In this document: positions 47,674 to 64,000 of the stretch, piece by piece | Numbering within the stretch: position 1 is the stretch's first letter | How the letters are laid out: each line of letters opens with the position of its first letter | DNA from: an uncultured Desulfobacteraceae bacterium | Lineage (GTDB): Bacteria; Desulfobacterota; DSM-4660; Desulfatiglandales; Desulfatiglandaceae | NCBI GenBank assembly: GCA_964588535.1 | Contig: CAZPQA010000005.1 | Location: forward strand, 5,177-69,176 | Length of the DNA: 64,000 bases | Direction: 5' to 3' | Notes under the pieces: model-generated | Database searches by the model: none | Seen by the model: the letters and a program-made list of their open reading frames with translations, nothing else | What the model was told of the DNA's origin: nothing | Made by a program: the position numbers and the translations under genes

Positions 47674-48270
47674 TTAATCGTGTTCTTTTACGTCAAACTC
47701 CGGAAGGCTTTCCACCTGGTCCTTGTCGATTTTAAGGTATACATCGCCGTCTTCATAACGGTCAATCTGATTGACAGGTACCGCAATATCCTTTTTGCCC
47801 CACAGGTGCCCCTCCACCAGAACAAGGTGCGTAATGCGACCGCTTTTCCCTTCCACCAGGAACTCGTCAACCTTTCCCACTCGTTCGTCTTTGGCGAAGA
47901 CCTTTGCGCCCTTGTGTACCGCAAACCCGCCGGCTGGAATGGCTTCACGCTCCACAAACATGGCTGCGGGTATGCCCGCATACCAACCCTCCTGCTCGGC
48001 CATGTAAAGCATAATATTGGACGGGATGTAGTCTTCCTGGATGAAATGCTTCATTTTCTGAAGCTTTTTCTTGTCGATTCTGAGTTCTACCGTATCATGA
48101 TCAGCGGTTTTCACAAATTTTTCCGGAATCAGGCGCAGGGTGTTTGCAATGTCGTGTTCTTTGACCACCAGGTATGTAACCCTTTCCGCCTGGGGATTGA
48201 CGATAATATTTTCCAGGCGGCCGATACGGCCATCGGTACAGTCAACATGTGCTTTTAAATGAAGATCCAT
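47674..48270 (-). CDS. Tandem PRC-barrel domain protein
   Basis: Two repeats: DGRIGRLENIIV..VTYLVV and ERVGKVDEFLV..ITHLVL..GHLWG. Confidence 0.8.
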   Translation of the reverse strand: MDLHLKAHVDCTDGRIGRLENIIVNPQAERVTYLVVKEHDIANTLRLIPEKFVKTADHDTVELRIDKKKLQKMKHFIQEDYIPSNIMLYMAEQEGWYAGIPAAMFVEREAIPAGGFAVHKGAKVFAKDERVGKVDEFLVEGKSGRITHLVLVEGHLWGKKDIAVPVNQIDRYEDGDVYLKIDKDQVESLPEFDVKEHD

Positions 48271-48323
48271 GGGGTTTCCTCCATCAGGGGGTTTCAGAAT
48301 TCCAAGTGGGTCAAAGCAGTTAC

Positions 48324-48728
48324 TTACTGAACGGGTGCATGATGCTCTATGTACGAGATGATGTCCGTCGTCGTGGTACCCGGTCCGAACACCTCGGTGA
48401 TGCCGGCTTCCTTGAGTGCAGGGATGTCCTCGTCGGGGATGATGCCTCCTCCCAGGACCAGCATGTCGTTTACGCCTTTTTCTTTCAACAGTTCCATCAC
48501 CTTGGGGAAAAGGTAATCATGGGCGCCGCTCAAGATGCTCATGGCAATAACATCCACATCTTCCTGTACGGCAGCTTCCACGATCTGTGTGGGCGTTTGC
48601 CGCAAACCCGTGTAGACCACCTCCATACCCGCATTCATGAGGGCTAATGCCACCACCTTGATTCCCCTGTCATGACCATCGAGCCCCGGCTTTGCCGCCA
48701 GGATCCTGATTTTTTTTGCTTTATCCAT
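48324..48728 (-). CDS. Methylmalonyl-CoA mutase, cobalamin-binding subunit
   Basis: [17 protein letters not shown] and GGGIIP. Start placed at MDKAK. Confidence 0.93.
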
Positions 48729-48747
48729 TGTTTTGTCTCCTGTCTGA

Positions 48748-50427
48748 TTACCCCAGCGTGTTAATGGCCTGGTATTCGCCGAATACGCCGCGCAGCACGT
48801 CACAGATTTCACCCAGTGTGGCATAGCCTCTCACGGCTTCCATAATCAGGGGCATGAGGTTGTCGTTTCCGCGGGCGCCCTGATCCAGTGCCGCCAGTGC
48901 ATTCTTAACGCTTTCGTTGTTTCTCTCCGCTTTTAGTTTCCCGAGACGTTCCACCTGCCGGGTTCGAACCGCCGGGTCCACCCGCAACAGATTTTTGGGC
49001 TTCTCCTCCTCCATTTGAAAGCGGTTGAGCCCCACAACGATGCGTTCGTCCTTTTCAATTTCCCGCTGGTAGGCATACGCACTGTCCTGGATCTCCCGTT
49101 GAACGTATCCCTGTTCAATGGCGGCGGGCGCTCCGCCCATTTTGTCGATTTTCCGGATATAGTCGTAGGCCCGGTCGTAGATTTCACGGGTTAGGCTTTC
49201 AACGTAATAGGCGCCGGCCAGGGGATCCACCGTGTCGGTCGCGCCGGTTTCATAGGCGATCATCTGCTGGGTTTTCAGCGCAATCTGTACCGATTCTTCC
49301 GAAGGAAGGCTCAATGCCTCGTCCATGGAGTTGGTGTGCAGGCTCTGGGTGCCCCCCAGGACGGCGGAAAGGGCCTGATACGCCACTCGAACAATATTGT
49401 TTTTGGGCTGCTGGGCGGTCAGGGTGCATCCCGCGGTCTGCGTATGAAACCGGATCATCATGCTCTTGGGGTTTTTGGCGTGAAACCGCTCTTTCATGAT
49501 GTTGGCCCACAACTTCCGGGCGGCCCGGTATTTGGCCACTTCTTCCAGGAAGTCCAGGTGGGCGTTGAAGAAAAACGAGAGCCTGGGGCCGAATTTGTCC
49601 ACGTCCAGGCCGGCTTTTAGCGCCGCGTCCACATAGGCGATGCCGTTGGCCAGGGTAAAAGCGATTTCCTGCACGGCCGTTGAACCAGCTTCCCGAATGT
49701 GATACCCGCTGATGCTGATGGTGTTCCAGAGGGGCACCTTTTCGGCGCAATAGGAGAAGATATCCGTGATGATGCGCATGGAAGGTTTCGGAGGATAAAT
49801 ATAGGTGCCGCGAGACGAATACTCCTTTAAGATATCGTTCTGGATGGTGCCTTTCAGCTGTTTGGGATCTGCCCCCTGTTTTTCAGCCACCACGATGTAC
49901 ATGGCCAGCAACACGGCAGCCGGCGCATTGATGGTCATGGAGGTGCTGACCTTTTCAAGGGGGATCTCCTGAAACAGGGTTTCCACATCCGCCAGAGAGT
50001 CGATGGCCACGCCGACCTTTCCCACCTCTCCGATGGATATTTCATTGTCCGAATCGTATCCGATCTGGGTGGGAAGGTCAAAGGCCACCGATAGTCCGGT
50101 CTGGCCCTGGTCCAGGAGGAAGCGGTAGCGTTTGTTGGACTCCTCGGCGGAGGCAAACCCTGCATACTGCCGCATGGTCCAGAACCGTCCCCGGTACATG
50201 GTGGGCTGTACCCCCCGGGTATAGGGGTATTCACCTGGGAACCCAAGGTCATCAGCATAATTTTCCGCCGGATTATCCATGGGGGTATAGAGCCTCTTGA
50301 TGGGAATCCCGGAGGTATTCACAAACTCCGGTTTTCGTTCCGGCCGTTTTTCGACTTTCTGGTCCACTGCTTCGGACCATTTTTCTAAAGCACCGGCCAG
50401 CGATGCCTGGTTTTTTTCGTCAAACAT
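48748..50427 (-). CDS. Methylmalonyl-CoA mutase, catalytic (N-terminal) subunit
   Basis: [29 protein letters not shown] and QSLHTNS.DEA. Confidence 0.95.
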
Positions 50428-50472
50428 AGGCGAACCTCCATTCTTCCTGTCCCGTTTAACCGGGATCATTTT

Positions 50473-51348
50473 TCAAGCGTTTTTCATAACTTCCAGGGCG
50501 GTCTCCCCCAGATGGGAAAGGCTGGGGGCCACGGTGATGCCCGCCTGTTCCAGGGCCTTGATCTTGTCTTCGGCTTTCCCCTGTCCACCGGAGATAATGG
50601 CGCCCGCATGGCCCATCCGTTTTCCGGGGGGCGCGGTCTGTCCTGCGATAAAGGCCACCACCGGCTTGTTAATGGACGCCTTGATAAATTCGGCGGCTTC
50701 TTCTTCAGCAGTCCCCCCGATCTCCCCGATCAAAACCACCCCTTCCGTGCCCGGGTCTTCCTGAAAACGTTTGAGATGGTCGATAAAGGTGCTGCCGATA
50801 ATCGGATCTCCACCGATGCCGATGCAGGTGGACTGACCCATGCCGACCAGGGTCAGCTGGTATACCACTTCATAGGTGAGGGTTCCACTTCGGGATATGA
50901 CGGCCATGTTCCCAGGTTTGTGAATGTTTCCCGGCATGATGCCCACCTTGGTTTTGCCGGGGGAAATGATGCCGGGGCAGTTGGGACCGATCAAAACGGT
51001 GTCACTCCCCTTCAGGCAACGGCTCACTTTTACCATGTCCAGGGTGGGAATCCCCTCCGTAATACACACAATCACCTTGATATCGCTATAAATGGACTCC
51101 AAAACCGCATCCGCTGCAAAGGGCGGCGGAACAAAGACGATTGACACATCGGCGCCTTCCTTTTCCACAACCTCTCCCACCGTGTTAAACACGGGCACCC
51201 CTTCAACGGCTTGACCCCCTTTTCCCGGTGAGACGCCGCCCACCACATTCGTGCCGTAGGCCAGCATCTGTTGGGTATGAAAAGTACCTTCACGGCCGGT
51301 CATGCCCTGGACCACAATTCTGCTGTTTTCATCAACGAGTATGCTCAT
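50473..51348 (-). CDS. sucD: Succinyl-CoA synthetase alpha subunit
   Basis: [16 protein letters not shown] and RMGHAGA. Confidence 0.96.
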
Positions 51349-51366
51349 AATCAGTCTTTCCCCTTA

Positions 51367-51525
51367 GGGCCTCGGCAAAAAATAATTGGGCAAGATTGCG
51401 CCGAATTTTGGTTCGTATGCAAGGCGCATCCGCCAGTGCATATTGGTGGATATGTGCCGGTGGATGTAACGCAGTAGACGAGCCAAAAGACAAGCAAGAT
51501 GTTTAATTATTTATTGTCGAGGCCC
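51367..51525. mobile_element. MITE, 159 bp, copy 2, inserted in the last codons of sucC
   Basis: Same TIRs and body as 25624..25783; flanked by a TTA direct repeat. Confidence 0.85.
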
Positions 51526-52688
51526 TTAACCTGTCCGGCCACATGGTCCGCCGCTTCAGCCAGATCTTTTGCCAACAGGAATGATAAATCGGAATTTTCC
51601 AGTATTTTCCGGCCTTCTTCCACATTGGTGCCTTCGAGTCTTACGATTAACGGTACCTCAATTTGATTTTTTTTGGCCGCGGCCACCACGCCCCTGGCCA
51701 GGATGTCACACCGCAAAATACCGCCGAAAATGTTAACCAGTATCGCTTTGACCCGTGGATCCTTCAAGATGATTTCAAACCCTTTGGCAATCATCTCTTC
51801 ATTGGCACCGCCCCCTGCATCCAGAAAATTGGCCGGTTCTGCGCCGGCCGCTTTGATCAAATCGAGGGTGGCCATGGCCAGACCTGCGCCGTTGACCATG
51901 GCCCCGATGTTGCCGTCCAGGCGGATGTAGTTGAGGTTGTACTGCTTTGCCATCAAATCCAGGGGATCCTCTTCGCTGGGGTCATCCAGGGCCAGCAGGT
52001 CTTTATGCCGGAAGAGGGCGTTATCGTCCAGATTCATCTTGGCATCAACGGCAAAAACCTGGTCGCCTGCTGCAATGATCAGGGGGTTGATTTCAACCAG
52101 GGAGCAGTCCAGGGAGATGAATACATTGTAGATTTTAGCCATCACCGACATCAACCGTTTGACGACCGCGGGGGCCGGTAGGGGATCGAGTCTGTAGATC
52201 AGGTTTCGTGACTGGTAAGGGAGCCAGCCGGTGGCCGGGTCCACATATTCCTTCCAGATCAATTCCGGCGTTTCTTTGGCCACCTCCTCGATTTCCATGC
52301 CGCCGGCCTGGCTGAAAATCATTGCCGGCAACCCCATTTTGCGATCAATGACCATGCCCAGGTAAAGCTCCCTTTCGATGTTTACCCCCTGTTCCACGAG
52401 GACTTTGTGGACCTTAACACCACCCGGTCCTGTCTGTGGGGTCACCAGTGAGGTTTTGAGCAGTGATTCCGTTGTGGCAACCACCTCACGGGGGTCATGA
52501 ACCACTTTGACGCCGCCCCCTTTACCACGTCCCCCGGCATGTACCTGGGCTTTGACGACCCATGGCTGCCCGGCGATAACCCGGCTTGCCTGGGTGGCTT
52601 CATCCGGAGAGGTTACCACCTGACCTTCCGGTACCGGAACGCCGGCCTGCCTGAGAATGTCTTTTGCCTGATATTCATGAATTTTCAT
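51507..52688 (-). CDS. sucC: Succinyl-CoA synthetase beta subunit
   Basis: MKIHEYQAK, GGRGKGGGV, NGAGLAMAT and NIFGGILRCD. Confidence 0.96.
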   Translation of the reverse strand: MKIHEYQAKDILRQAGVPVPEGQVVTSPDEATQASRVIAGQPWVVKAQVHAGGRGKGGGVKVVHDPREVVATTESLLKTSLVTPQTGPGGVKVHKVLVEQGVNIERELYLGMVIDRKMGLPAMIFSQAGGMEIEEVAKETPELIWKEYVDPATGWLPYQSRNLIYRLDPLPAPAVVKRLMSVMAKIYNVFISLDCSLVEINPLIIAAGDQVFAVDAKMNLDDNALFRHKDLLALDDPSEEDPLDLMAKQYNLNYIRLDGNIGAMVNGAGLAMATLDLIKAAGAEPANFLDAGGGANEEMIAKGFEIILKDPRVKAILVNIFGGILRCDILARGVVAAAKKNQIEVPLIVRLEGTNVEEGRKILENSDLSFLLAKDLAEAADHVAGQVKGLDNK

Positions 52689-52706
52689 GGGTGATCCTTC
52701 TGTTTT

Positions 52707-54257
52707 CTAGAGGGGCACATTCCCGTGCCGCCTTTCGGGAATGGTCTCCTTCTTGTTTTTGAGCATCATCAACGCCTTGATCAACCTGGGGCGTGTGTTT
52801 TCCGGGAAAATGATCTGATCGATATATCCCAGTTCGGCGGCTTTAAAAGGGCTGGCGAAGTTGCTTCGATAATCATCGACCAACTCCTTTCTTCTGGCTT
52901 CTGGATCTTCGGCTTCGGCAAGCTCCTTTCTGAAGATGATATTGACGGCCCCTTCAGGCCCCATGACGGCGATTTCAGCGGTGGGGTAGGCATAGTTGAT
53001 GTCGCCCCCATGATGCTTGCTGCTCATGACGTCATAGGCGCCACCGTAGGCCTTCCGGGTTACCACCGTGATTTTCGGCACGGTGGCTTCACAGTAGGCG
53101 TAAATGATTTTGGCCCCGTGTTTGATGATACCCCCGTGTTCCTGGCCGACGCCCGGCAGAAAACCCGGTACATCCACGAAGGTGACCAGCGGAATGTTGA
53201 AGGCATCACAGGTTCGCACAAACCGCGCACATTTCATGGACGCGTCGATATTCAGGCATCCTGCCATATACTTTGGCTGGTTGGCCACAATTCCCACGGG
53301 CATGCCGTTTAAACGACCGAACCCGATGATCATGTTTTGCGCATAATGGCGCTGGATTTCCATAAACTGGTTATGGTCCAGAACAGATGTGATAATGTCC
53401 CTGATGTCGTAGGGAATCCTGGGATTGGTGGGGACCACATTGTTTAACCCCGGATCCGTGCGCATGGGGTCATCAGTGCAGGGGATCGCGGGGGGCATTT
53501 CACGATAACTTTGCGGCATAAAGGCCAGGATTTCTTTCACCCGGTCCAGGGCCGCGTGATCGGAATCCTCGGCGAAATGGGCCACGCCGCTTTTGGTGTT
53601 GTGGGCCATGGCGCCGCCAAGGGCTTCTGCGGTTACCTCCTCGCTGGTGACGGTTTTAATGACCTGGGGGCCGGTGACGAACATGTTGCTGGTTTTTTTG
53701 ACCATCACCGTAAAATCCGTGATGGCCGGTGAATAGACCGCCCCGCCGGCGCAGGGCCCCATGATGACCGATATCTGGGGAATGACGCCCGAGGACCACA
53801 CATTCCGTTTGAAGATTTCACCGTAGCTGCCTAAGGATACAACCCCTTCCTGAATTCTGGCGCCACCCGAATCGTTCAATCCGATGACCGGAGCGCCGTT
53901 CTTAAGCGCCAGGTCCATGATTTTGCAGACCTTCTCGCCAAAAGGGCCGCTCAAGGATCCGCCAAAGACCGTAAAATCCTGAGAAAAGATGAAGACTGAC
54001 CGGCCGCTGATGGTGCCATATCCCGTGACCACGCCATCACCGGGAATTTTCTGTTTCTCCATACCGAAATCCTGGCAGCGATGGACCACGAACTTGTCGA
54101 TTTCCTCAAAGCTCCCCTCGTCCAAGAGGTATTCAATCCTTTCCCGGGCCGTCAGTTTTCCCTTGGCGTGTTGTGAATCGATCCTTTTCTGGCCCCCGCC
54201 CAGGGCCGCTTCTTCGTTTCTTCTCTTAAGTTCACTGATTTTCGCTTCTATATCCAT
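52707..54257 (-). CDS. pccB: Propionyl-CoA/methylmalonyl-CoA carboxyltransferase subunit
   Basis: [30 protein letters not shown] and RKAYGGAY. Confidence 0.9.
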
Positions 54258-54335
54258 TTTGGTCTCCTTGGGGGTTACGATAACAGAAGGGCAGATGCCA
54301 AAGCCCGGTATGCACGGAGTGCTGAACTCTGGTTC

Positions 54336-54632
54336 TTAAGAACGGTTACGTTTCCAATTATGGTATTTTTGAAGGTCTTTTTCCAGAAGATAGATGCAAA
54401 ACAGCAGGATAAACGCGTCGTCAATTTGTCCCAGAAACGGGATAAAATCGGAAAGTATGTCAATGGGGCTGAGGACATAGACGATGGCCAGAACAAAGAC
54501 AGCAATGGATCCGAGAGAAACATCGCGATATTCCCCTTTCCAGTAATCTTTTATTAACGCGCCCAGAAGCTTGAAATCCTCAAGCAGTCGGCGCCACAAA
54601 CCGATTTTGAGCAGATTGTTTCCTTGCATCAT
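54336..54632 (-). CDS. YkvA/DUF1232-family membrane protein
   Basis: YVLSPIDILSDFIPFLGQIDD. Confidence 0.88.
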   Translation of the reverse strand: MMQGNNLLKIGLWRRLLEDFKLLGALIKDYWKGEYRDVSLGSIAVFVLAIVYVLSPIDILSDFIPFLGQIDDAFILLFCIYLLEKDLQKYHNWKRNRS

Positions 54633-54948
54633 AAACCACCTTGCCGAAAAGCGGCCCCATCATGTCAGGATTGTATGATAATTTCAATAAATTTCATCGG
54701 GGTGGATCGGGCGGGCTTCAAAATTATGTTCCGGGTTAGCATGAAGCGCTCTTAAAAAAGTACAAATATTCATTGAATCCAAATTATTAAGACTTGAGCA
54801 GGATCCTCTAATCGCATGATTTCTTCCTATACACATCACCGTGGAAAATAATTGAAAGATTCCCTAATATTGCCCCGAAGCCTGCTCGCGAACATGTTAA
54901 GCTTGGAATAGTGAGCATGAATTTGACATTTCCACCGGCGGCCTAAAT

Positions 54949-56205
54949 CTAAAGCCACAACATTGACAATGGCACAGCGTAATATGATTTCCCACTATTG
55001 CTAAACGGCAGCAATCTCGAACCCGTATAAAAAACAAGGCCATGTTTAAGTCGATCACCGACGAACTCTGCAAATTTTGACAATCCTTTAAAATCACTTT
55101 CTCTTATCGTACTGGAGGCTTTTACTTCAATACCGATCAAACGGCCATCATCCTGTTCAAGAATGATATCCACCTCGTTTTTCCTTTTATCCCGAAAATG
55201 GTACACATTCATCGGTTCTTCGGCCCATGTCATATGTTTAAAACATTCCATCACCACAAAGCTTTCCAGCAAACCACCATAAAAGGGTGATGACAGTAAC
55301 TGCTGTTTTTTCTTCAGTCCCAGTAAATAACATGCCAGGCCGGTATCAATCATGTGCAGTTTGACCATTGTCATTGTTTGACGTTTGGCAGGATTTTTCA
55401 CATAGGGATGTATACGTTTAACAATGAACATCCATTCCAATGCCTCAATATATGATTTGACCACCTTGTCATTCAGCCCAAGATCATTGGCCACATTGGC
55501 ATATTTTAAAAGATTACCACTGAGTCCCGCCAAATAAGGGATAAGTGCCGCAAGTTTTGTGTGATAGTCCCCTTTTGCTGTGTAAATACTTGAAAAATCT
55601 TTAAACAAACGACCCTGCAAATATGACTGCAACCATACTTGTCTGGCCCGGGGACTTTTCGCCTGCAGTTCCGGATAGCCTCCGTCGATCAATGTTTGGG
55701 CTAGTTGCTCTCGACTTATTACAGGAAGATTTACAGGCACAGATAAATTATCATCAAGCAAAAAGTCGATCAGATTAAAATCACCACCAACCTTTTCCGT
55801 GATAGATAAAGGATAAAGTTCAACTCTTGCCATGTGGCCGGGAAGCGCTTCCTGTGTTTTGGCGGAACTGAAAATATCAGCAGATCCCGTGAGAAAAAAA
55901 CGCCCCCGCTCATGGGGTTGTAACTGATCAGAGGCTAATTTAATGGCTTTAATCAATTCCGGAGCATATTGAAATTCATCCAAAACCACTGATTGCCCGG
56001 CAAAAGTATCAACAAAACCATGGGGATCATTAAGGGCTGAAGCAAACGCAGACTGTTCATCAAAAGAGACATAGCGCATCCCCTGATCTTTGGCAATTTC
56101 ACGAGCTAATGTGGTTTTCCCGGCCTGCCTGGGGCCTGTTAAGTACAGTATCCGAAATTCAGACAGTAATTCTTTTAGTAATCTTTTGCTATGGCGTGTG
56201 TACAT
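54949..56205 (-). CDS. AAA_14/DUF4143-type ATP-binding protein
   Basis: GPRQAGKTT, LDEFQ, LTGS, GGYPE, DTGL and EVD...IEVK; AT-rich. Confidence 0.88.
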   Translation of the reverse strand: MYTRHSKRLLKELLSEFRILYLTGPRQAGKTTLAREIAKDQGMRYVSFDEQSAFASALNDPHGFVDTFAGQSVVLDEFQYAPELIKAIKLASDQLQPHERGRFFLTGSADIFSSAKTQEALPGHMARVELYPLSITEKVGGDFNLIDFLLDDNLSVPVNLPVISREQLAQTLIDGGYPELQAKSPRARQVWLQSYLQGRLFKDFSSIYTAKGDYHTKLAALIPYLAGLSGNLLKYANVANDLGLNDKVVKSYIEALEWMFIVKRIHPYVKNPAKRQTMTMVKLHMIDTGLACYLLGLKKKQQLLSSPFYGGLLESFVVMECFKHMTWAEEPMNVYHFRDKRKNEVDIILEQDDGRLIGIEVKASSTIRESDFKGLSKFAEFVGDRLKHGLVFYTGSRLLPFSNSGKSYYAVPLSMLWL

Positions 56206-56611: not shown

Positions 56612-56995
56612 ATGACTGAAAAAGTAAAGGGTTCCGTACTGGTTGTGGGTGGTGGCATTTCCGGCATGCAATCGGCCCTGGATCTCGCCAACTCAGGCTA
56701 TTACGTATACCTTTTAGAGAAGAGCCCATCCATCGGGGGCGCTATGGCCCAGCTGGACAAGACCTTCCCCACCAACGACTGCGCCATGTGAATTATCTCT
56801 CCCAAACTGGTCGAGGTCGGCCGGCACTTGAACATTGAACTCATCACCTATGCGGACCTGGAATCGGTGGAAGGGTCCGCTGGGAATTTTAAAGTAAAAA
56901 TCAAGAAGCGCGCGCGAAGCATTGACATGAACCGCTGCACCGGATGCGGCAGTTGCGTCGAGGCCTGCCCGGTCACCCATCAGGCGGTGGTTTAG
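56612..56995 (+). CDS. hdrA: Selenocysteine-containing N-terminal HdrA fragment (127 aa)
   Basis: Not in the ORF track. [10 protein letters not shown]...[20 protein letters not shown]...[12 protein letters not shown]. The in-frame TGA at 56789 replaces the second Cys of the conserved CxxC. AAGGAG SD. Confidence 0.88.
56807..56824 (+). promoter_or_regulatory. Bacterial SECIS hairpin
   Basis: CTGGTCG-AGGT-CGGCCGG stem-loop starting 15 nt after the UGA, with a G-containing apical loop. Confidence 0.7.
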
Positions 56996-57000
56996 GGGAG

Positions 57001-57036
57001 AGTGACGAGTGACGAATGACAAATGACGAATGACGA
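57001..57036. repeat. Intergenic heptamer tandem repeat A(G/A)TGAC(G/A) x5
   Basis: Read directly from the sequence. Confidence 0.8.
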
Positions 57037-57085
57037 ACCGGGAAGGGGAAATCCATGGTTCGTCGCCCCTTGGAGTCTTTTTGTG

Positions 57086-57592
57086 ATGAATGAAAACAAA
57101 GCAACCGAAAATGATGCCGTTTTGGCCATAGACTATCTGGCGCTGGACCGGCTGGTGAGAGAACAATTCAACAACGACAAGGAAAACCTGATCATGATCC
57201 TTCAGGCCATCCAGGCGGAATATAACTATCTTCCCCGACCTGCCCTGGCCTATCTTTCCGAAAAAATAGAAATTCCCCTGAGCCATATTTACGGGGTGGC
57301 CACCTTTTACAGCACCTTCAGCCTGGAACCCCGAGGGAAAAACATCATCAGCATCTGTCTGGGCACCGCCTGCCATGTACGGGGGGCCGGCAAAGTGCTG
57401 GAACGGATTGAAGATACCTTGCACGTGGAAAATGGAAAAACCACTGAGGATGGCCAGTTTACCTTGGAATCGGTGCGGTGTATCGGCTGCTGCAGTCTGG
57501 GACCGGTGGTGAAAATCAACGAAGACGTGTATGGCCGAATCGCCTCAGAGGACCTGACGCAAATTCTGGATCATTACGGGGAATCCCAATAG
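57086..57592 (+). CDS. nuoE: NuoE/HydC-like [2Fe-2S] subunit
   Basis: GVATFYSTF, CLGTACHVRG and RCIGCCSLGP. Confidence 0.92.
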   Translation: MNENKATENDAVLAIDYLALDRLVREQFNNDKENLIMILQAIQAEYNYLPRPALAYLSEKIEIPLSHIYGVATFYSTFSLEPRGKNIISICLGTACHVRGAGKVLERIEDTLHVENGKTTEDGQFTLESVRCIGCCSLGPVVKINEDVYGRIASEDLTQILDHYGESQ

Positions 57593-57607
57593 AACAGGGC
57601 GGTTAAT

Positions 57608-59509
57608 ATGAAGATTCAGCAAATATCGGATATCGATGAAATAGGCCGGAAACAAAGAGATACCCTTTATTTTCCCAAAGAGATCACCATCAACACGGGG
57701 ATGGCGTCTTGCGGCATTGCGGCGGGAGCTGACAAAACCTTTGAGCGGGCCGTGGCCGAATTCGGTGAAAACAAGACGTTTCAAATTCGAAGAACCGGAT
57801 GCCTGGGGTTTTGTGAGATGGAGCCCCTGGTGGAAATCTACCAGAAAAATGGTCCACGGATTGTTTATAAGAATGCCACACAAGACAAAATTACGGATAT
57901 GGTCAATGGGTATACGGCGGGCCAATTTGATAAAAAATGGGTCCTGGGGCAGATGCGTGACCCCCGGTCCCTGCTGGAAGAAGACTTCCTTAATCCCCTC
58001 GAGGGATTTGAACCCGTTCCGGATATCCCCATTCTGGAGGATATCCCTTTTTATGGTCAGCAGATCAAAATCGCTCTGCGCAACTGCGGCTATATTGATC
58101 CTGAAAAAATTGAAGAATACATGGCCAGGGGCGGTTACAAGGCGTTTCTGATCGCTCTTGAAGCCGGTCAACCGGATGGCATCATCGCCGCCATCAAAGA
58201 TTCGGGGTTGCGGGGGCGCGGGGGTGGCGGGTTTCCAACGGGTGTCAAATGGGAGAGTTGCGCAGCTCACCATGGAGAACGCTTCATCATCTGCAACGCC
58301 GATGAGGGGGACCCGGGCGCTTACATGGACCGCAGCATTTTGGAAGGGGATCCCCACGCCATCATTGAGGGAATGCTCATCGCGGGGCTGGCCGTCGGCT
58401 CAAACAAAGGGTTCATCTATGTGCGCAACGAATATCCCCTGGCGGTCAAACGCCTGGTCACGGCTATCCGGCAGGCCACGGATTACGGCCTTTTAGGAGA
58501 ACAGATAGGGGGTTCTGATTTTTCCTTTGAAATGAAGATCTCAACCGGCGCCGGCGCTTTTGTCTGTGGGGAATCAACGGCGCTGATGGCTTCCCTTGAA
58601 GGGGAGGTGGGACGTCCCAGGGCCAAATACATCCACACGGTGGAAAAAGGGTTCCGTCAAAGCCCTTCCAACCTGAACAATGTGGAGACCTATGCCAATG
58701 TGCCGGCTATTTTGCTGAAAGGGTCCCAATGGTTTTCCCAACTGGGAACGGACCACAGCAAGGGAACCAAGGTGTTCAGCCTGGTGGGAAAAATCAAAAA
58801 TACGGGTCTGGTGGAAGTGCCCATGGGCACCAGCCTAAAAAGCATCATCTATGACATGGGTGGCGGGATTCCCAAAAAGAAAGCTTTTAAAGCAGTTCAG
58901 ACCGGTGGTCCTTCGGGGGGGTGCATACCGGAGGAGTTTCTGGACCTGGGGGTTGATTTCAGCGAACTGGCCAAGGTGGGTTCCATCATGGGTTCCGGCG
59001 GCATGATTGTCATGGACCAGGATAACTGCATGGTGGATGTGGCAAGATATTTCCTGGATTTCCTGAAAGAGGAATCCTGCGGTCAGTGCAATCCCTGCCG
59101 GGAAGGGATTAAACGGATGCTGGAGGTTTTGAACCGAATCTGCGAAGGGGACGGCAGGGAAGGGGACATTGAACTGCTTCAAGAGCTCGGTGGCATGGTC
59201 CGGAACTTTTCACTTTGCGGGCTGGGCACCTCCGCGCCCAACCCGGTGCTCACCACCATACGATATTTTAAAGATGAGTATGAGGCCCACATCCGGGACA
59301 AAAAGTGCCCGGCCGGGGTCTGCAAGCCCCTTTTCCATTACGAAATCGACGGGGATGCTTGCACCGGCTGCCGCGTCTGCGCCCGCAAATGCCCAGAGGA
59401 GGCCATCACCGGAGAAAAGAAAAAGCCCCATGAACTGGACCCGGAAAAATGCATCAAGTGCGGCATCTGTTACGACGTCTGTAAATTCGATGCCATCGTC
59501 ATTGCCTAA
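57608..59509 (+). CDS. nuoF: NuoF/HydB-like NAD(H)/FMN subunit with extra FeS domains
   Basis: GRGGGGFPTG, NADEGDPG, GGPSGG and ESCGQCNPCREG, plus an N-terminal [2Fe-2S] domain and C-terminal 2x[4Fe-4S]. Confidence 0.93.
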   Translation: MKIQQISDIDEIGRKQRDTLYFPKEITINTGMASCGIAAGADKTFERAVAEFGENKTFQIRRTGCLGFCEMEPLVEIYQKNGPRIVYKNATQDKITDMVNGYTAGQFDKKWVLGQMRDPRSLLEEDFLNPLEGFEPVPDIPILEDIPFYGQQIKIALRNCGYIDPEKIEEYMARGGYKAFLIALEAGQPDGIIAAIKDSGLRGRGGGGFPTGVKWESCAAHHGERFIICNADEGDPGAYMDRSILEGDPHAIIEGMLIAGLAVGSNKGFIYVRNEYPLAVKRLVTAIRQATDYGLLGEQIGGSDFSFEMKISTGAGAFVCGESTALMASLEGEVGRPRAKYIHTVEKGFRQSPSNLNNVETYANVPAILLKGSQWFSQLGTDHSKGTKVFSLVGKIKNTGLVEVPMGTSLKSIIYDMGGGIPKKKAFKAVQTGGPSGGCIPEEFLDLGVDFSELAKVGSIMGSGGMIVMDQDNCMVDVARYFLDFLKEESCGQCNPCREGIKRMLEVLNRICEGDGREGDIELLQELGGMVRNFSLCGLGTSAPNPVLTTIRYFKDEYEAHIRDKKCPAGVCKPLFHYEIDGDACTGCRVCARKCPEEAITGEKKKPHELDPEKCIKCGICYDVCKFDAIVIA

Positions 59510-59541
59510 CAGCCATAAGCCATGAGCCATGAGCCATGAGC
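59510..59541. repeat. Intergenic heptamer tandem repeat AGCCAT(G/A) x4.5
   Basis: Read directly from the sequence. Confidence 0.8.
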
Positions 59542-59558
59542 TAAAACAAGGATCACCC

Positions 59559-62500
59559 ATGATAACATTTAAAATCAATGACAGGGAAGTTCAGGGAGAG
59601 GAAGGGCAGTATATCCTTGACGTGGCCAAAAAGGCCGGCATGGAAATTCCCACCCTCTGCCATCATGAGGCCCTGGAGCCAGCGGGCATGTGCCGGCTAT
59701 GTACCGTTGAACTGTTTGACGGGCGAAAAACCAGATTTGTAACCGCCTGCAACTACCCCATCTGGGAAGGGATGGAGGTGTTTACGGATTCCGAATCTGT
59801 GACCCAGGGGCGCAAACTCATTGTGGAATTACTGCTGGCCCGCTGCCCCGATGTCCCGTTGCTCAAAGACCTAGGCCTCAAATACGGCATCAAAGAACCC
59901 CGTTTTGCGCCGGAGGGAGATGACTGCATCCTCTGCGGCCTTTGCGTTCGCATCTGTGAAAAGATGGGCAATAACGCCATCAGCTTCACGGGGCGCGGTG
60001 TGGAGATGAAGGTGGATACGCCCTTTAATGTGCAAACCGAATTCTGTATGGGGTGTGGATCGTGTGCCTCGGTCTGTCCCACGGGTCATATCAACCTGGA
60101 AGACATCGCCGTCCATCAGGTGAAGCCCATCCCTTCGGAATATGACATGGGGCTGAAAGGGAGAAAACCTATTTATGTCCCCTATGCCCAGGCCATTCCC
60201 AACATCCCGGCCATTGATCGGGACATGTGCGTGCATTTCAAGACCGGAGCCTGCCAGGTATGCACGGAATTCTGCGGTGTGGACGCCATTGATCATCTGC
60301 AGCAGGACGAGACCATCGAACTGGAAGTGGGGTCCATCATTCTGGCACCGGGATTCCAGCCTTTCGACCCCTCCGAATTAACCCACTATGGCTACGGCCG
60401 GCATCCCAATGTGATGACGGCAATGGAGTTTGAGCGTATTTTGTCGGCTTCGGGTCCCACCATGGGGCACCTCACGCGGCCGTCTGACGGAGAGGCGCCC
60501 AAAAAAATTGCCTGGATCCAATGCGTGGGATCCAGGGAGGAAAACCGCTGTGATCACGAATATTGTTCATCTGTGTGCTGTATGTACGCCATCAAGGAAG
60601 CGGTCATCGCCAAGGAACATGCGGGGGCCGATCTCGATTGCACCATCTTTTACATGGATATGCGGACCCACGGCAAGGATTTCGAGCGCTTTTATGACGA
60701 TGCCCGAAATAAGCATGGGGTCCGGTTTATCCGGTCCCGTGTCCCTGCCGTTGAGACCGTCAAAGGGCGGGATGAACTGGCCATTACCTATGTAAATGAA
60801 CAGATGACGCCCACGACGGAATCGTTTGATCTGGTGGTCCTGTCCGTGGGAATGGAAACCCCCCAAGCGCTGATGGAACTGGCAGATCGACTGGGTGTGG
60901 ATCTAACCGCGGGCCATTTCTGCGACACTCCTTCATTTCATCCCGTGGCCACATCCCGGGAAGGGATTTTCGTGTGCGGCGCCTTCGCAGGCCCGAAAGA
61001 TATCCCCCAGTCTGTTGTGGAAGCCAGTTCGGCAGCGGCTGAAGCAGGGGCCCTTCTAAAGGAAGCCCGAAACACCCTGACCCAACAGGAAACCTTTCCG
61101 GAGGAGCGGGTTATTGCCGGTGAGCGGCCCAGGATCGGCGTTTTTGTGTGCCAGTGCGGCATCAACATCAGTGGTGTGGTGGATGTCCCTGCTGTGCGGG
61201 ATTATGCCGCTTCGCTTCCGTACGTGGAATATGTGACCGACAACCTCTATACCTGCTCCCAGGACACTCAGGAGGCCATGGGCAAGGTCATTAGCGAAAA
61301 CAACCTCAACCGCATTGTGGTGGCCGCATGCACCCCCAAGACCCATGAGCCATTGTTCCAGGAAACCCTGGTGGCTGCCGGTCTCAACAAGTACCTCTTT
61401 GAGATGACCAACATTCGCAACCAGGATTCCTGGGTGCATAAGAATGATCCTCAAATGGCCACACAAAAGGCCAGGGACCTGGTGCGCATGGCGGTGGCCA
61501 AGGTAGCACTCATGGAACCCCTGGTGGAAACAGAGCTTGAGATCAACCAGAGGGCACTGGTGGTGGGGGCCGGCATCTCCGGTATGGCAGCCGCCACGAG
61601 CCTTTCGGATCAGGGTTATGAGGTTTGCCTGGTGGAGCGGGAACCGTTTCCGGGCGGGCAGGGGAGTCTTCTGTTTCGAACCTGGAAGGGCGAAGACGTA
61701 CAAATGAACCTCTCCCAAATGATGGATAAGGTCCAATCTAACCCGAATATTGACCTGCGCTTGAATACGGAACTGTCAGGCGTGGAAGGATTTGTGGGGA
61801 ATTTCAAAACGACCCTTTCTAGCGACGGCCATGAAGAACAGGTGGAACACGGCGTGGTGGTGATTGCCACGGGGGCGTTCGAAGGAAAGCCGAATGAGTA
61901 CCTTTACGGTGAGGATGATCGGGTGGTTACCCATCTGGAATTGGATCAGCGATTTATCGGAAACGACCCTGCCTTGAAAGAGATGAAGTCCGCTGTGTTT
62001 ATTCAATGCGTGGGGTCTCGTGAGCCCGAGCGTCCCTATTGTTCACGGGTCTGTTGCACCCATGCCATGGAAAGCGCCCTGCACCTGAAAAAACTGAACC
62101 CCCAAATGCGCGTGGTGGTCCTTTACCGGGACATTCGCACCTATGGAGAGCGGGAATACCTTTACCGGGACGCACGGATGGCAGGTGTTTTGTTCATCCC
62201 CTATAGTGTGGACCGGAAACCGGCGGTTTCCCTGGATGAGGGATCTCTCAAAATCCGGGTGATGGACCCGTTGCTGGGAAGAGAAGTGGCGCTGACAGCC
62301 GACCTGCTCTGCCTGGCTTCCGCCATTGTTCCTTACCGGGATGAAACGCTGGCCCAGATGTTCAAGGTCCCCATGAACGAGGACGGTTTTTTCGTGGAAG
62401 CCCATGCCAAGCTGGGACCGTCGGAGTTCGCCACGGATGGCGTCTTTTTATGCGGTATGGACCACTATCCAAAACCCATTGATGAATCTATCGCACAGGC

Positions 62501-62792
62501 GCTTGCCGCCGCGTCCCGGGCGGTGACCCTCCTGGCCCGGAAAACCGTTCGCATGAGCGGTACGGTGGCCCAGACCGATCCGAGCCAGTGCAGCAGCTGT
62601 GGCGTTTGTCTTGCCATCTGTCCCTATTCTGCGCCGGGGGTCAGGGAAAAAGACCCATTTTCCGGCAAGATCGAGATCAACCCGGCATTGTGCAAGGGAT
62701 GCGGTTTGTGCGTGGCATCCTGCAGATCGGGCGCCCTCAACCTGAAGGGTTTTGGGGAGAATCAAATCATGGCCATGATTAATACGATATAG
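59559..62792 (+). CDS. hdrA: NuoG/HydA-type FeS N-terminus fused to a double-module HdrA lacking its first Rossmann segment
   Basis: IPTLCHH...CRLCTVE and CILCGLCVRIC, followed by HdrA motifs RKPIYVPYAQAIP, QCVGSR, CSSVCC, VFVCQCG, VVGAGISG and CSRVCC. Confidence 0.9.
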   Translation: MITFKINDREVQGEEGQYILDVAKKAGMEIPTLCHHEALEPAGMCRLCTVELFDGRKTRFVTACNYPIWEGMEVFTDSESVTQGRKLIVELLLARCPDVPLLKDLGLKYGIKEPRFAPEGDDCILCGLCVRICEKMGNNAISFTGRGVEMKVDTPFNVQTEFCMGCGSCASVCPTGHINLEDIAVHQVKPIPSEYDMGLKGRKPIYVPYAQAIPNIPAIDRDMCVHFKTGACQVCTEFCGVDAIDHLQQDETIELEVGSIILAPGFQPFDPSELTHYGYGRHPNVMTAMEFERILSASGPTMGHLTRPSDGEAPKKIAWIQCVGSREENRCDHEYCSSVCCMYAIKEAVIAKEHAGADLDCTIFYMDMRTHGKDFERFYDDARNKHGVRFIRSRVPAVETVKGRDELAITYVNEQMTPTTESFDLVVLSVGMETPQALMELADRLGVDLTAGHFCDTPSFHPVATSREGIFVCGAFAGPKDIPQSVVEASSAAAEAGALLKEARNTLTQQETFPEERVIAGERPRIGVFVCQCGINISGVVDVPAVRDYAASLPYVEYVTDNLYTCSQDTQEAMGKVISENNLNRIVVAACTPKTHEPLFQETLVAAGLNKYLFEMTNIRNQDSWVHKNDPQMATQKARDLVRMAVAKVALMEPLVETELEINQRALVVGAGISGMAAATSLSDQGYEVCLVEREPFPGGQGSLLFRTWKGEDVQMNLSQMMDKVQSNPNIDLRLNTELSGVEGFVGNFKTTLSSDGHEEQVEHGVVVIATGAFEGKPNEYLYGEDDRVVTHLELDQRFIGNDPALKEMKSAVFIQCVGSREPERPYCSRVCCTHAMESALHLKKLNPQMRVVVLYRDIRTYGEREYLYRDARMAGVLFIPYSVDRKPAVSLDEGSLKIRVMDPLLGREVALTADLLCLASAIVPYRDETLAQMFKVPMNEDGFFVEAHAKLGPSEFATDGVFLCGMDHYPKPIDESIAQALAAASRAVTLLARKTVRMSGTVAQTDPSQCSSCGVCLAICPYSAPGVREKDPFSGKIEINPALCKGCGLCVASCRSGALNLKGFGENQIMAMINTI

Positions 62793-62809
62793 TTCTGGAG
62801 GACACAAGT

Positions 62810-63286
62810 ATGGGAGCCATTGATCTGGACCAATGCGATTCTGATTTTGTAAAAGAATTGGCCCAACAGCCTGAAGCCGAGAAAATTTCCGCCTGTTTCG
62901 TATGCCGCACCTGCGTTGCCGGATGCCCCATGTCGGCCGTAAACGATACCTTTAATCCGGCGCGGATTATTCGCATGGCCCTTTACGGCATGAAGGAAGA
63001 GATCCTCGAAAGTTCCTTCATCTGGCTCTGTTCCAGCTGCTATACCTGCCAGGAGCGCTGCCCGCAGGGGGTCCGGATTACGGATTTCATGACCCTGTTG
63101 AAAAACATGGCCGTCAAGGAAGGTCATGAACCGTCCGGCATAAAAGCACAGATGGGTTTGACAAAAGGGCAGGGAAGAATTTATCCACTTGACGACTTTG
63201 ATAATAAGAAACGGAAAAAGGCGGGGTTGCCCCAACTGCCCACAACGTGTGATGTGATCGGGGAACTGTTTCCGGATCAGGGGTGA
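62810..63286 (+). CDS. hdrC: Heterodisulfide reductase subunit C
   Basis: CFVCRTCVAGCP and WLCSSCYTCQERCPQGV. Confidence 0.92.
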   Translation: MGAIDLDQCDSDFVKELAQQPEAEKISACFVCRTCVAGCPMSAVNDTFNPARIIRMALYGMKEEILESSFIWLCSSCYTCQERCPQGVRITDFMTLLKNMAVKEGHEPSGIKAQMGLTKGQGRIYPLDDFDNKKRKKAGLPQLPTTCDVIGELFPDQG

Positions 63287-63332
63287 TTTTAGTTAGCTGT
63301 TAGCCTGGTCCCAAGCTCCAGCGTGGAAACCA

Positions 63333-63385
63333 GAAACTTGAAACTCAAAACTCAAAACTTGAAACTTGAAACTTGAAACTTAAAA
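63333..63385. repeat. Intergenic heptamer tandem repeat AAACT(TG/CA) x7
   Basis: Read directly from the sequence. Confidence 0.8.
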
Positions 63386-63414
63386 CCGCGGTTTGCCGCC
63401 TTAGGAACAACTCA

Positions 63415-64000
63415 ATGAAATACGCACTCTTTTTAGGTTGTACCATCCCCGCAAGGGCACGAAACTATGAGCTTTCCGCAAGACGGGTGGCGGAAAAAAC
63501 GGGGGTCGAGCTGGTGGATATGCAAGATTTCATCTGTTGCGGTTTTCCCACCAAGGCCGGGGACATGGATGCGTCCCTGTTGATGGCCGCCTATAATCTG
63601 GCCCTGGCCCGGAAGCATAATCTGGATGTATGCGCCCTGTGCAGTTCCTGTACGTCGGCTTTGTCTGAAGCCGCCCATCATTTATCAGAAAGTGAGGAAG
63701 ATCTTGCGAAGGTGAATGAACGATTGTCCGCCGTGGGATTGCAGTATGAGGGCTTCCCAAGAATCCGGCATTTTGCGCGGGTACTGTTTGAAGAAGTGGG
63801 GGCTGAAGAAATTCAAAAGCATTTTGAAAAGGACTTGAGTGGACTGAACATTGCGACGCACTACGGTTGTCACTATTTGAAACCTTCGGAAATCCACGAC
63901 GGCTTTGATGATCCGGAAAACCCCAACTCCCTGGAAACGATCGTGGCGCTGACCGGCGCAACCATTGTCGATTATCCGGGAAAAATGACCTGCTGTGGCG
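63415..64000 (+). CDS. hdrB: Heterodisulfide reductase subunit B (runs off the window)
   Basis: Manual translation gives MKYALFLGCTIP...FICCGFP...CSSC...HYGCHYLKP...TCCG (CCG domains). Confidence 0.92.
   Translation, partial: MKYALFLGCTIPARARNYELSARRVAEKTGVELVDMQDFICCGFPTKAGDMDASLLMAAYNLALARKHNLDVCALCSSCTSALSEAAHHLSESEEDLAKVNERLSAVGLQYEGFPRIRHFARVLFEEVGAEEIQKHFEKDLSGLNIATHYGCHYLKPSEIHDGFDDPENPNSLETIVALTGATIVDYPGKMTCCG

Follow-up and report, generated by a model that had tools for sequence, protein, structure and literature searches.

The operon described here lies at the end of a 64,000-nucleotide stretch of DNA (the window) from an uncultured Desulfobacteraceae bacterium (assembly GCA_964588535.1, contig CAZPQA010000005.1, positions 5,177 to 69,176 of the forward strand). 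Its six + strand genes follow the order hdrA'(Sec)-bfuC(nuoE)-bfuB(nuoF)-bfuA::'hdrA-hdrC-hdrB. In this arrangement the heterodisulfide reductase subunit HdrA is divided into a small head containing selenocysteine (Sec) and a large body, with a HydABC-type module (Bfu) fused to the latter. A first-pass annotation had given this gene order and the coordinates, and re-reading of all six genes returned the same. The operon is real and conserved, a variant not yet characterised, and brings two known bifurcating modules together in another way than class II benzoyl-CoA reductase (BCRII) does. Judged from sequence, gene order and published structures, it is about an even proposition that two bifurcation steps would run in series in one soluble complex, with the Bfu module fused into the low-potential exit of HdrA; the biochemistry is a prediction. 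A broader reading, which falls a little short of an even chance, is that hdrA'-bfuCBA would be a portable cassette plugging a second bifurcating machine into that exit and grafted onto different bodies. In sulfate reducers it would act as a two-stage redox gearbox (~3 NADH:2 disulfide:1 ferredoxin pair) wired opposite to BCRII, in which the site of the bifurcating FAD (flavin adenine dinucleotide) and two iron-sulfur (FeS) clusters are each built from two polypeptides. Published papers are cited below for parts of their content.

The selenoprotein head

The head gene (56612..56995, + strand) encodes a selenoprotein of 127 aa in which the in-frame UGA at 56789..56791 (+ strand) is read through as Sec60, a position occupied by U or C in homologues; a tRNA-Sec is present in the genome. 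Alignment of the head to residues 145-258 of HdrA in structure 5ODC is gap-free and places U60 on Cys197. The head contains the FAD-binding GxGxxG (G13/G15/G18), the CxxU motif C57-A-M-U60 and the first of the inserted ferredoxin domain's 4Fe-4S motifs (C109/112/115/119). Both the glycines and the ferredoxin-motif cysteines occur in 61 of 61 homologues, and position 60 is U in 59 of these and C in two. Identity is 85-99% across most loci, and the heads of related loci always end in a few variable residues past CPV.

A bacterial hairpin of the selenocysteine insertion sequence (SECIS) type lies 15 nt past the UGA (56807..56824, + strand; 7 bp stem, 4-nt loop). Its folding energy is not better than that of shuffled sequences (z 0.03, -0.56 and 0.20), scores that are uninformative, and it is conservation at the codon level that rules out the UGA as a plain stop. 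All seven stem pairs are kept in 60 of 61 distinct Sec-encoding rows from related loci, the lone other row being a different paralogue. Six codons in the SECIS are the same in 59 to 61 of the 61 Sec rows, with flanking codons varying synonymously, and only one of six Cys-encoding rows keeps six or more pairs. The retention of Sec and SECIS proposed at first reading is thus supported by codon fixation in Sec rows, loss in Cys rows and the tRNA-Sec. A motif search also found TGA at the CxxU position in 7 of 10 HdrA paralogues of the genome.

The body and the split FAD site

The stop codon of the head stands at 56993, and 2.5 kb of other genes separates head from body. The large gene begins with a BfuA/NuoG-like N-terminal part (59559..60098, + strand) and continues as the HdrA body (60099..62792, + strand). 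Residues of the large protein are counted here from the ATG at 59529 and not from the likely start at 59559, which gives a length shared with most homologues (1077 aa). The NuoG/BfuA-like part covers about residues 11-190, and HdrA resumes after the CxxCxxCxxxCP motif of the large protein plus a 14-residue linker, its likeness falling in three stretches. Alignment of head and large protein supports the proposal that the NADH module is inserted at the ferredoxin motif of HdrA.

The body carries the inserted ferredoxin domain's second motif (C234/242/245/249), the rest of TrxR1 with K356 (Lys409 of 5ODC), an N-terminal-type FeS domain, TrxR2 and a C-terminal 2[4Fe-4S] domain. TrxR2 is without the equivalent Lys (E848) and without CxxC. 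K356 is found in 57 of 57 bodies, and in the second module its place is taken by E, D, K, L or G, a pattern that matches the bifurcating and non-bifurcating FAD of BamE. The cysteines of the three ferredoxin motifs in the large protein are likewise invariant (57/57); with the head motif, the four invariant motifs imply four clusters, two within BfuA and two shared between head and body.

Both halves had been described as intact, and together they do carry every HdrA1 cofactor site. The bifurcating FAD site of HdrA is found distributed over two chains, as GxGxxG, E300 and E302 (Glu354/356 equivalents), K356 (Lys409 equivalent) and the HA4 cysteines C332/346/350/351, the Glu, Lys and Cys residues being those that would act in this site. 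The complementarity of a fused dimer is also seen, with the Cys197 position (U60) on the head and the N-terminal domain (C541/543/576/601) on the body. TrxR and inserted ferredoxin domain, which mark a bifurcating HdrA when on one polypeptide, are here divided between two. As judged by these motifs, head plus body is a BamE-type permuted fused HdrA dimer with its bifurcating FAD site predicted to span two chains, and each of the inserted domain's two 4Fe-4S clusters would draw ligands from both. The earlier description was of a two-flavin-module complex; the flavins predicted are three, namely one flavin mononucleotide (FMN) and two FAD, with the bifurcation Lys only at the split FAD.

The Bfu module

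The bfuC gene (nuoE-like, 57086..57592, + strand) encodes 168 aa from its likely start at 57086, in a frame open from 57023, with one 2Fe-2S site (C1) whose cysteines occur in 66 of 66 homologues. The bfuB gene (nuoF-like, HydB type, 57608..59509, + strand) encodes 633 aa with an FMN/NAD core, B1 and C-terminal B3/B4 clusters, their cysteines present in 66-67 of 67 homologues. The best structure matches of this NuoF are StnB, NfnB and HydB, far stronger than complex I NuoF. The genes do not fit a complex I N-module, which would have a NuoF free of extra FeS domains, a full NuoG and membrane nuo genes; NuoF scores 443.8 against an NCBIfam cut-off of 558.65 and NuoE 128.2 against 142.4. Structure matches and cluster motifs together bear out the annotation of a HydB-type NuoF with extra FeS domains. 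The ligands of the B2-or-Zn site (C474/C512/H561/C567/C572) stand at the spacing of A. mobile (38-49-6-5). The Losey bifurcation signatures are present as A238 and M240 (A-x-M), F318 in GAGAF and G433-G437 (GGPSG), and F376, the alternative Phe position by offset, is likewise Phe. The N-terminal thioredoxin-like domain has three cysteines (35, 65 and 69) at the putative 2Fe-2S (B5) site, which in the Bfu family has four ligands; the three-Cys pattern is the same as in StnB 8OH5.

The BfuA part contains a 2Fe-2S motif (C44/55/58/74) and two 4Fe-4S motifs (C133-143 and C173-183), A1 and both 4Fe-4S motifs being kept in 57 of 57 homologues; its best structure match is 9MQX chain A, residues 29-192. 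A His-ligated A3 motif was not found in the BfuA part by homologue alignment. The port of the third substrate in A3-less BfuA is A4 (PMC9304861; PMC12318220), and lack of the motif therefore assigns the same port here. The Bfu module carries bifurcation signatures, and coupled reduction of NAD+ and ferredoxin is predicted from them.

Assembly in trans

The proposal that the split HdrA reassembles in trans gains from several kinds of evidence (conservation, fusion of head to NuoE, retention of displaced heads and a complex model), and assembly of the pieces into one complex is very probable. A divergent clade has head and NuoE fused in one chain, as seen at 8 loci (L121-L124 and L126-L129) of one set of 14 and at L035. 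In the genomes G016, G096 and G402 no head gene adjoins the operon, and each has a TGA-containing head of 134-135 aa at another place, beside nuoE in the two examined.

The complex was modelled with the natural-Cys pair of locus L108, using body residues 1-662 (41-row alignment) and the head (5 rows) in three runs. The score was 0.89, with the best of three controls at 0.00; in the benchmark the 0.89 mark is reached by 116 of 157 solved pairs and 2 of 215 mismatched pairs. Contacts agree at >= 98% with a partner pLDDT of >= 89. The modelled interface completes the Rossmann sheet, as had been asked of a joint model of the small and large pieces, and includes all four ferredoxin-motif cysteines of the body, the conserved Lys, the N-terminal-domain cysteines and residues around the second BfuA 4Fe-4S motif (134, 138 and 166-174). 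Likeness to solved HdrA may explain why the model passes.

Distribution, downstream genes and expression

The BfuA::HdrA junction was found in 24 of 61 genomes searched around the source genome (27 places), including 9 of 10 others of its own genus. The full junction in these genomes, one of them single-contig, rules out an assembly artefact or recent breakage. Across the phylum, at least 16 of 401 sampled genomes have it, a lower bound given that eight candidates were scored per genome. A GTDB scan confirmed 323 of 385 pattern matches, and the best 80 were analysed as loci; these are kin, partly overlapping the 61-genome set, and are by title mostly from Desulfobacterales, Desulfatiglandales and other deltaproteobacteria. 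The synteny survey proposed with the first reading shows that the architecture is not unique, the order head-nuoE-nuoF-large gene being found in 54 of the 57 loci with >= 3.3 kb upstream, 53 of them with Sec.

Downstream classes could be counted in 54 loci with enough DNA, 26 of the 80 being too short. Behind the body stand mvhD-flxC(BA) in 35 loci, mvhD alone in 5, hdrC as in the window in 12 and other genes in 2, and mvhD and hdrC were found together directly behind the body in none of the 54. An upstream hdrCB and a downstream mvhD co-occur in L035, L108, L118 and L122. Operons of the flx type often end in DsrC with both C-terminal cysteines. In four loci metV-metF comes after mvhD (L035, L118, L121 and L126), and mvhG-mvhA occurs in L120, L124, L128 and L129. 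Upstream of the head, operons of the mvhD-flx type frequently have genes for a two-receiver protein and a sigma-54 response regulator, each at 18 loci (L048, L061, L069, L078, L079, L082 and L084 among the loci concerned), which suggests signal-dependent control.

The exact operon type of the window, at 84-97% identity, is present in strain NaphS2 (L045), where the order is two HdrA fragments, nuoE, nuoF, large gene, hdrC, hdrB, SixA-like gene and FAA hydrolase. Gene order maps these to NPH_6167/6168 (HdrA), 6171 ('BamI'), 6173 (HdrB) and 6175 (fumarylacetoacetate hydrolase); the annotation calls the head as two HdrA fragments and the body as '4Fe-4S binding protein'. NPH_1818-1823 was tried as a match and rejected, being aprBA-qmoAB-hdrCB. 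On naphthalene versus pyruvate NPH_6167 and 6168 were up 2.0-fold, and HdrB was in the proteome; many hdr and apr genes were likewise up (PMC2988823). By this mapping the head gene is transcribed in the NaphS2 relative, and Sec read-through is predicted there. Contigs of two marine metatranscriptome assemblies from one study contain relatives' pieces over the head and gene junctions (shares 0.08 and 0.06), and are not used as evidence.

Proposed electron flow

In published structures the inserted ferredoxin domain is the low-potential exit of HdrA (bioRxiv 10.64898/2026.04.10.717634; PMC9012536), and it is into this domain, not at the MvhD entry that BCRII uses, that the Bfu module is fused. 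A mid-potential donor would come in at the C-terminal ferredoxin domain by way of an MvhD adaptor. In relatives the donor would be NADH via Flx, H2 via MvhAG, or MetVF, and here the MvhD would come from another locus. Such a separate mid-potential entry is indicated by mvhD behind the body in 40 of 54 relatives, 35 of them with flxCBA. At the split FAD the electrons would part: one would go through HdrC and HdrB to a disulfide, most probably that of DsrC, while the second would leave by the Sec-ligated cluster, cross the inserted ferredoxin domain and reach BfuA at cluster A4. BfuBC would then divide four low-potential electrons between NAD+ and ferredoxin; as BfuBC splits them again, these electrons would need only about -390 mV. 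With NADH as donor the net stoichiometry would be 3 NADH, 2 disulfide and one ferredoxin (two electrons), versus 2:1:1 for Flx-Hdr. This 3:2:1 gearing would let a weaker donor reach ferredoxin, and the complex would be reversible. With NADH at -280 and ferredoxin at -500 mV (potentials from PMC9304861) and the disulfide assumed at -140 mV, the cascade comes to +20 mV versus -40 mV for the canonical 2:1:1 reaction.

The disulfide branch is encoded by hdrC (62810..63286, + strand, 158 aa) and hdrB (63415..64000 in the window and on to 64287, + strand, 290 aa). Both five-Cys CCG motifs of HdrB are intact (C9/41/42/76/79 and C152/193/194/229/232) and align with 5ODC B, so that the two non-cubane cluster motifs of a heterodisulfide reductase are present, the substrate being a prediction. 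The genome has dsrA and two dsrC. Possible sources of the adaptor elsewhere in the source genome are mvhD-flxCBA on contig C247 and mvhD-mvhGA on C14; an flx cluster has its own HdrA nearby in genomes G009, G003, G006 and G010, and none directly upstream in G004. The first-pass annotation had proposed a soluble NADH:disulfide/ferredoxin oxidoreductase. Entry of NADH through the Nuo module as donor to HdrA is not supported, because the module sits at the low-potential exit and mvhD is found in 40 of 54 relatives, although it may hold for the mvhD-less type of the window.

Several observations weigh against the serial arrangement. The source genome contains 15 MvhD domains, none on the contig of the operon, and their sharing in trans is assumed. 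In none of the 12 loci of the hdrC type does mvhD stand behind the body, and the mvhD-flx type is without hdrBC, which leaves each of the common types incomplete in cis. The -140 mV of the DsrC disulfide is an assumed value, and at -200 mV with NADH at -280 the cascade falls to -20 mV and the canonical reaction to -70 mV. No cysteine fills the fourth B5 position (31) here or in 43 of 67 homologues, the other 24 having one, and the complex model was made with a homologue pair rather than the window's own Sec protein. The second BfuA 4Fe-4S motif is presumably cluster A4, an assignment that derives from FeFe-hydrogenase structures.

Alternative explanations

The alternative that survives best, close to the first-pass reading, is that the hdrCB type works without MvhD as a straight wire, which we consider rather unlikely. 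NADH and reduced ferredoxin would confurcate in Bfu, and the electrons would pass from A4 through the inserted ferredoxin domain, the Sec-ligated cluster, an FAD relay, HdrC and HdrB to DsrC. The 12 hdrC-type loci without mvhD, the termination of the operon at hdrB and the two intact motifs of HdrB all speak for it, and BamGHI takes NADH and ferredoxin electrons in the same direction (bioRxiv 10.64898/2026.04.10.717634). Such a path would, however, use up ferredoxin for a reduction that is easy; K356, the Lys of bifurcation, and the C-terminal ferredoxin cysteines for MvhD entry are conserved in the 57 aligned bodies, hdrC types included, and most relatives have mvhD. It keeps its place because the window's type needs an entry adaptor from elsewhere.

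The wiring of the serial arrangement could also run backwards, with electrons from NADH and ferredoxin (through Bfu) and from thiols (through HdrB) confurcating at the split FAD. They would leave through MvhD to methylene-tetrahydrofolate via MetVF, protons via MvhAG or NAD+ via Flx. The loci with metV-metF after mvhD and those with mvhG-mvhA are in its favour, and enzymes of such kind are reversible (PMC9304861). It is nonetheless improbable, the host being a sulfate reducer with dsrA and DsrC as sink, and the NaphS2 orthologue being up on aromatics alongside aprBA and further hdr genes, a response in keeping with the disposal of catabolic electrons.

A proposal made for NaphS2 in 2010 would make the three Nuo-like genes the missing BamGHI of the lineage's BCRII. 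NPH_6169-6171, which correspond by gene order to the NaphS2 version of the operon, were published as BamG-I homologues, and the bamB-F cluster was reported without them; on benzoate versus pyruvate NPH_6167 was up 2.6-fold and NPH_6171 1.7-fold (PMC2988823). A BfuA query in the NaphS2 genome matched only the fusion and one 300-aa frame (E <= 1e-20). This reading is very unlikely all the same. BamI is free-standing, and its end cluster docks by way of BamF, whereas here the end is fused to HdrA and modelled against it; bamB and bamC are not among the recurrent neighbour families of the 80 loci; and the induction is unspecific, the head genes also responding to naphthalene and 12 hdr-annotated rows being up on benzoate.

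That the head is vestigial and the large protein functions by itself, with its own CxxCxxCxxxCP in place of the head motif and its second FAD as the reactive one, is scarcely credible: the second BfuA motif does align with the first inserted-domain motif of HdrA and the head is non-adjacent in 3 of 57 loci, yet the head is strongly conserved up to its variable tail after CPV, Sec and SECIS are fixed, the head is kept at a distance when displaced, and the second FAD module has neither the Lys nor CxxC.

Comparison with known systems

The closest characterised complex is the BCRII assembly BamDEFGHI of Geobacter metallireducens (bioRxiv 10.64898/2026.04.10.717634), and the question whether the operon already matches a characterised complex has a divided answer, the module pair being shared and the split HdrA and the joining port being different. 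Both combine a HydBC-type module with a fused HdrA dimer, place a bifurcating FAD in TrxR1 (conserved Lys) and a non-bifurcating FAD in TrxR2, and have a CxxC near the bridging cluster and an HdrBC-like output. In BamDEFGHI, BamE is one chain, a separate BamI feeds the C-terminal ferredoxin domain via BamF as the mid-potential entry, and the inserted domain feeds BamBC. The window operon, in contrast, has a split HdrA, BfuA fused into the inserted domain, Sec in CxxU, an HdrB that keeps both non-cubane motifs (unlike most BamD) and no bamBC. The set that marks BCRII, namely bamB/bamC, BamF, a free BamI and a single-chain BamE, is not found in the operon. On contig C222 of the source genome, an AOR-family gene, an hdrC-like gene and the beginning of an HdrA with Sec lie in a row, which suggests a bamBCDE cluster cut by the contig end.

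Among Bfu enzymes, the clade with A1/A2/A4-only BfuA, such as WorABCSL, shares the BfuBC signatures and the lack of A3, and differs in that here the HdrA body is the third-substrate domain fused to BfuA; an Hdr-fused type is not listed in the sections covered of the two papers describing the clade (PMC9304861; PMC12318220). FlxABCD-HdrABC of sulfate reducers (PMC10553843) is echoed by the 35 of 54 relatives with mvhD-flxCBA, often with dsrC, behind the body, but has an intact HdrA that reduces free ferredoxin, whereas here the Bfu module occupies the exit; the operon has no flx and no intact hdrA. HdrL and HdrA/NfnB fusions (PMC2702500; PMC9012536) also have an NAD(P)H module interrupting the inserted ferredoxin domain, with Sec at the same position. 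The HdrL insert is GltD/NfnB-like, in frame in one chain and ~35 residues further on, with no FMN/Bfu core and no split, so that the window operon is not an HdrL; HdrL-like paralogues do occur on contigs C28 and C31 of the source genome. HdrABC-MvhAGD of methanogens (PDB 5ODC) shares the HdrA cofactor motifs, the Cys197 and Lys409 positions, HdrC and HdrB, and is a homodimer of 654-aa chains rather than a split, permuted fused dimer. The co-encoded MvhD expected of a bifurcating HdrA is absent from operon and contig.

In the part covered of a study on Desulfotignum, nuoEFG stands beside mvhD and hdrA with no split or fusion mentioned (PMC4046663). Neither split nor fusion is described in the titles, abstract openings and passages searched, which did not include the main HdrA review. 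Two distinct bifurcation modules in one complex were unreported before according to the BCRII preprint (bioRxiv 10.64898/2026.04.10.717634), and in the searchable literature the pairing is shown for only that one other enzyme. The operon is a second, commoner and much smaller two-module arrangement, joined at a different port, and poses the question whether the low-potential electron of HdrA can pass to a second bifurcation step and with what stoichiometry. With head and body encoded separately, the FAD half-site and the Sec/Cys197 residue could be altered within a subunit of 127 residues to probe the HdrA mechanism, and the operon bears on ferredoxin supply from NADH-level donors in complete-oxidising sulfate reducers.

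Evolution and variants

In a tree of HdrA bodies (48 rows), split forms interleave with unsplit and HdrL paralogues. A single origin of the split bodies was rejected by the approximately unbiased (AU) test, in which 16 split rows could not form one clade against 7 unsplit/HdrL rows (p 0.0027; a subset of 23 rows out of those 48, with a quick tree that used no mixture model, the test being run after the FastTree was viewed). The front cassette has thus moved between bodies, or been lost, more than once. The inserted ferredoxin domain takes other inserts as well, GltD-like in HdrL, NfnB-like in ANME-1 (PMC9012536), and in L132, L134 and L136 polyferredoxin, sometimes accompanied by a formate-dehydrogenase-like gene.

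These last three loci (L132:8063-14230, L134:1007-5134 and L136:44-1398) represent a second kind of split HdrA, in which a 315-326-aa Sec head is fused to the polyferredoxin; a 1034-aa body comes next, with mvhD-flxCBA afterwards in L132 and L134. In L132 and L136 a formate-dehydrogenase-alpha-like gene follows the Sec head-polyferredoxin, its first frame stopping after DHCARL; this stop is probably another Sec. Second operon copies in L041:7013-10861 and L043:2650-10861 have a body of 1282-1300 aa whose C-terminal domain is of the glycine-cleavage-H (lipoyl) type, a 440-462-aa gene with the same domain upstream, and mvhD and an unsplit Sec HdrA following. In L059, L063 and L064, of the hdrCB type, an opposite-strand prismane/CO-dehydrogenase gene upstream of nuoF replaces head and nuoE. 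BfuB of L120:12149-15499 and L126:9642-12140 has a long C-terminal extension; by eye it resembles HdrL's GltD/NfnB-type insert, and it may be a third NAD(P)H module.

Operon boundaries and surrounding genes

The contig runs 955 bases beyond the window and contains the stop of hdrB at 64287. The next gene encodes a SixA-like histidine phosphatase, and the operon is therefore without further redox genes after hdrB, which extends past the window the earlier observation that no Mvh or Flx subunit is encoded in the operon. Shine-Dalgarno-like sequences lie upstream of 56612, 57086, 59559, 62810 and 63415. Promoter and terminator scans gave chance-level results only (5 found vs 5.2, and 14 vs 10.4 +/- 3.6). 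The spacers at 57003-57040, 59512-59543 and 63335-63385 are filled with short tandem heptamer-like repeats. Upstream, at 47674-56205, lies a minus-strand cluster resembling methylmalonyl-CoA mutase, sucCD and carboxyltransferase, and close relatives conserve it in part next to the operon; in the window an AAA/DUF4143 ATPase gene (54949-56205) separates it from the operon.

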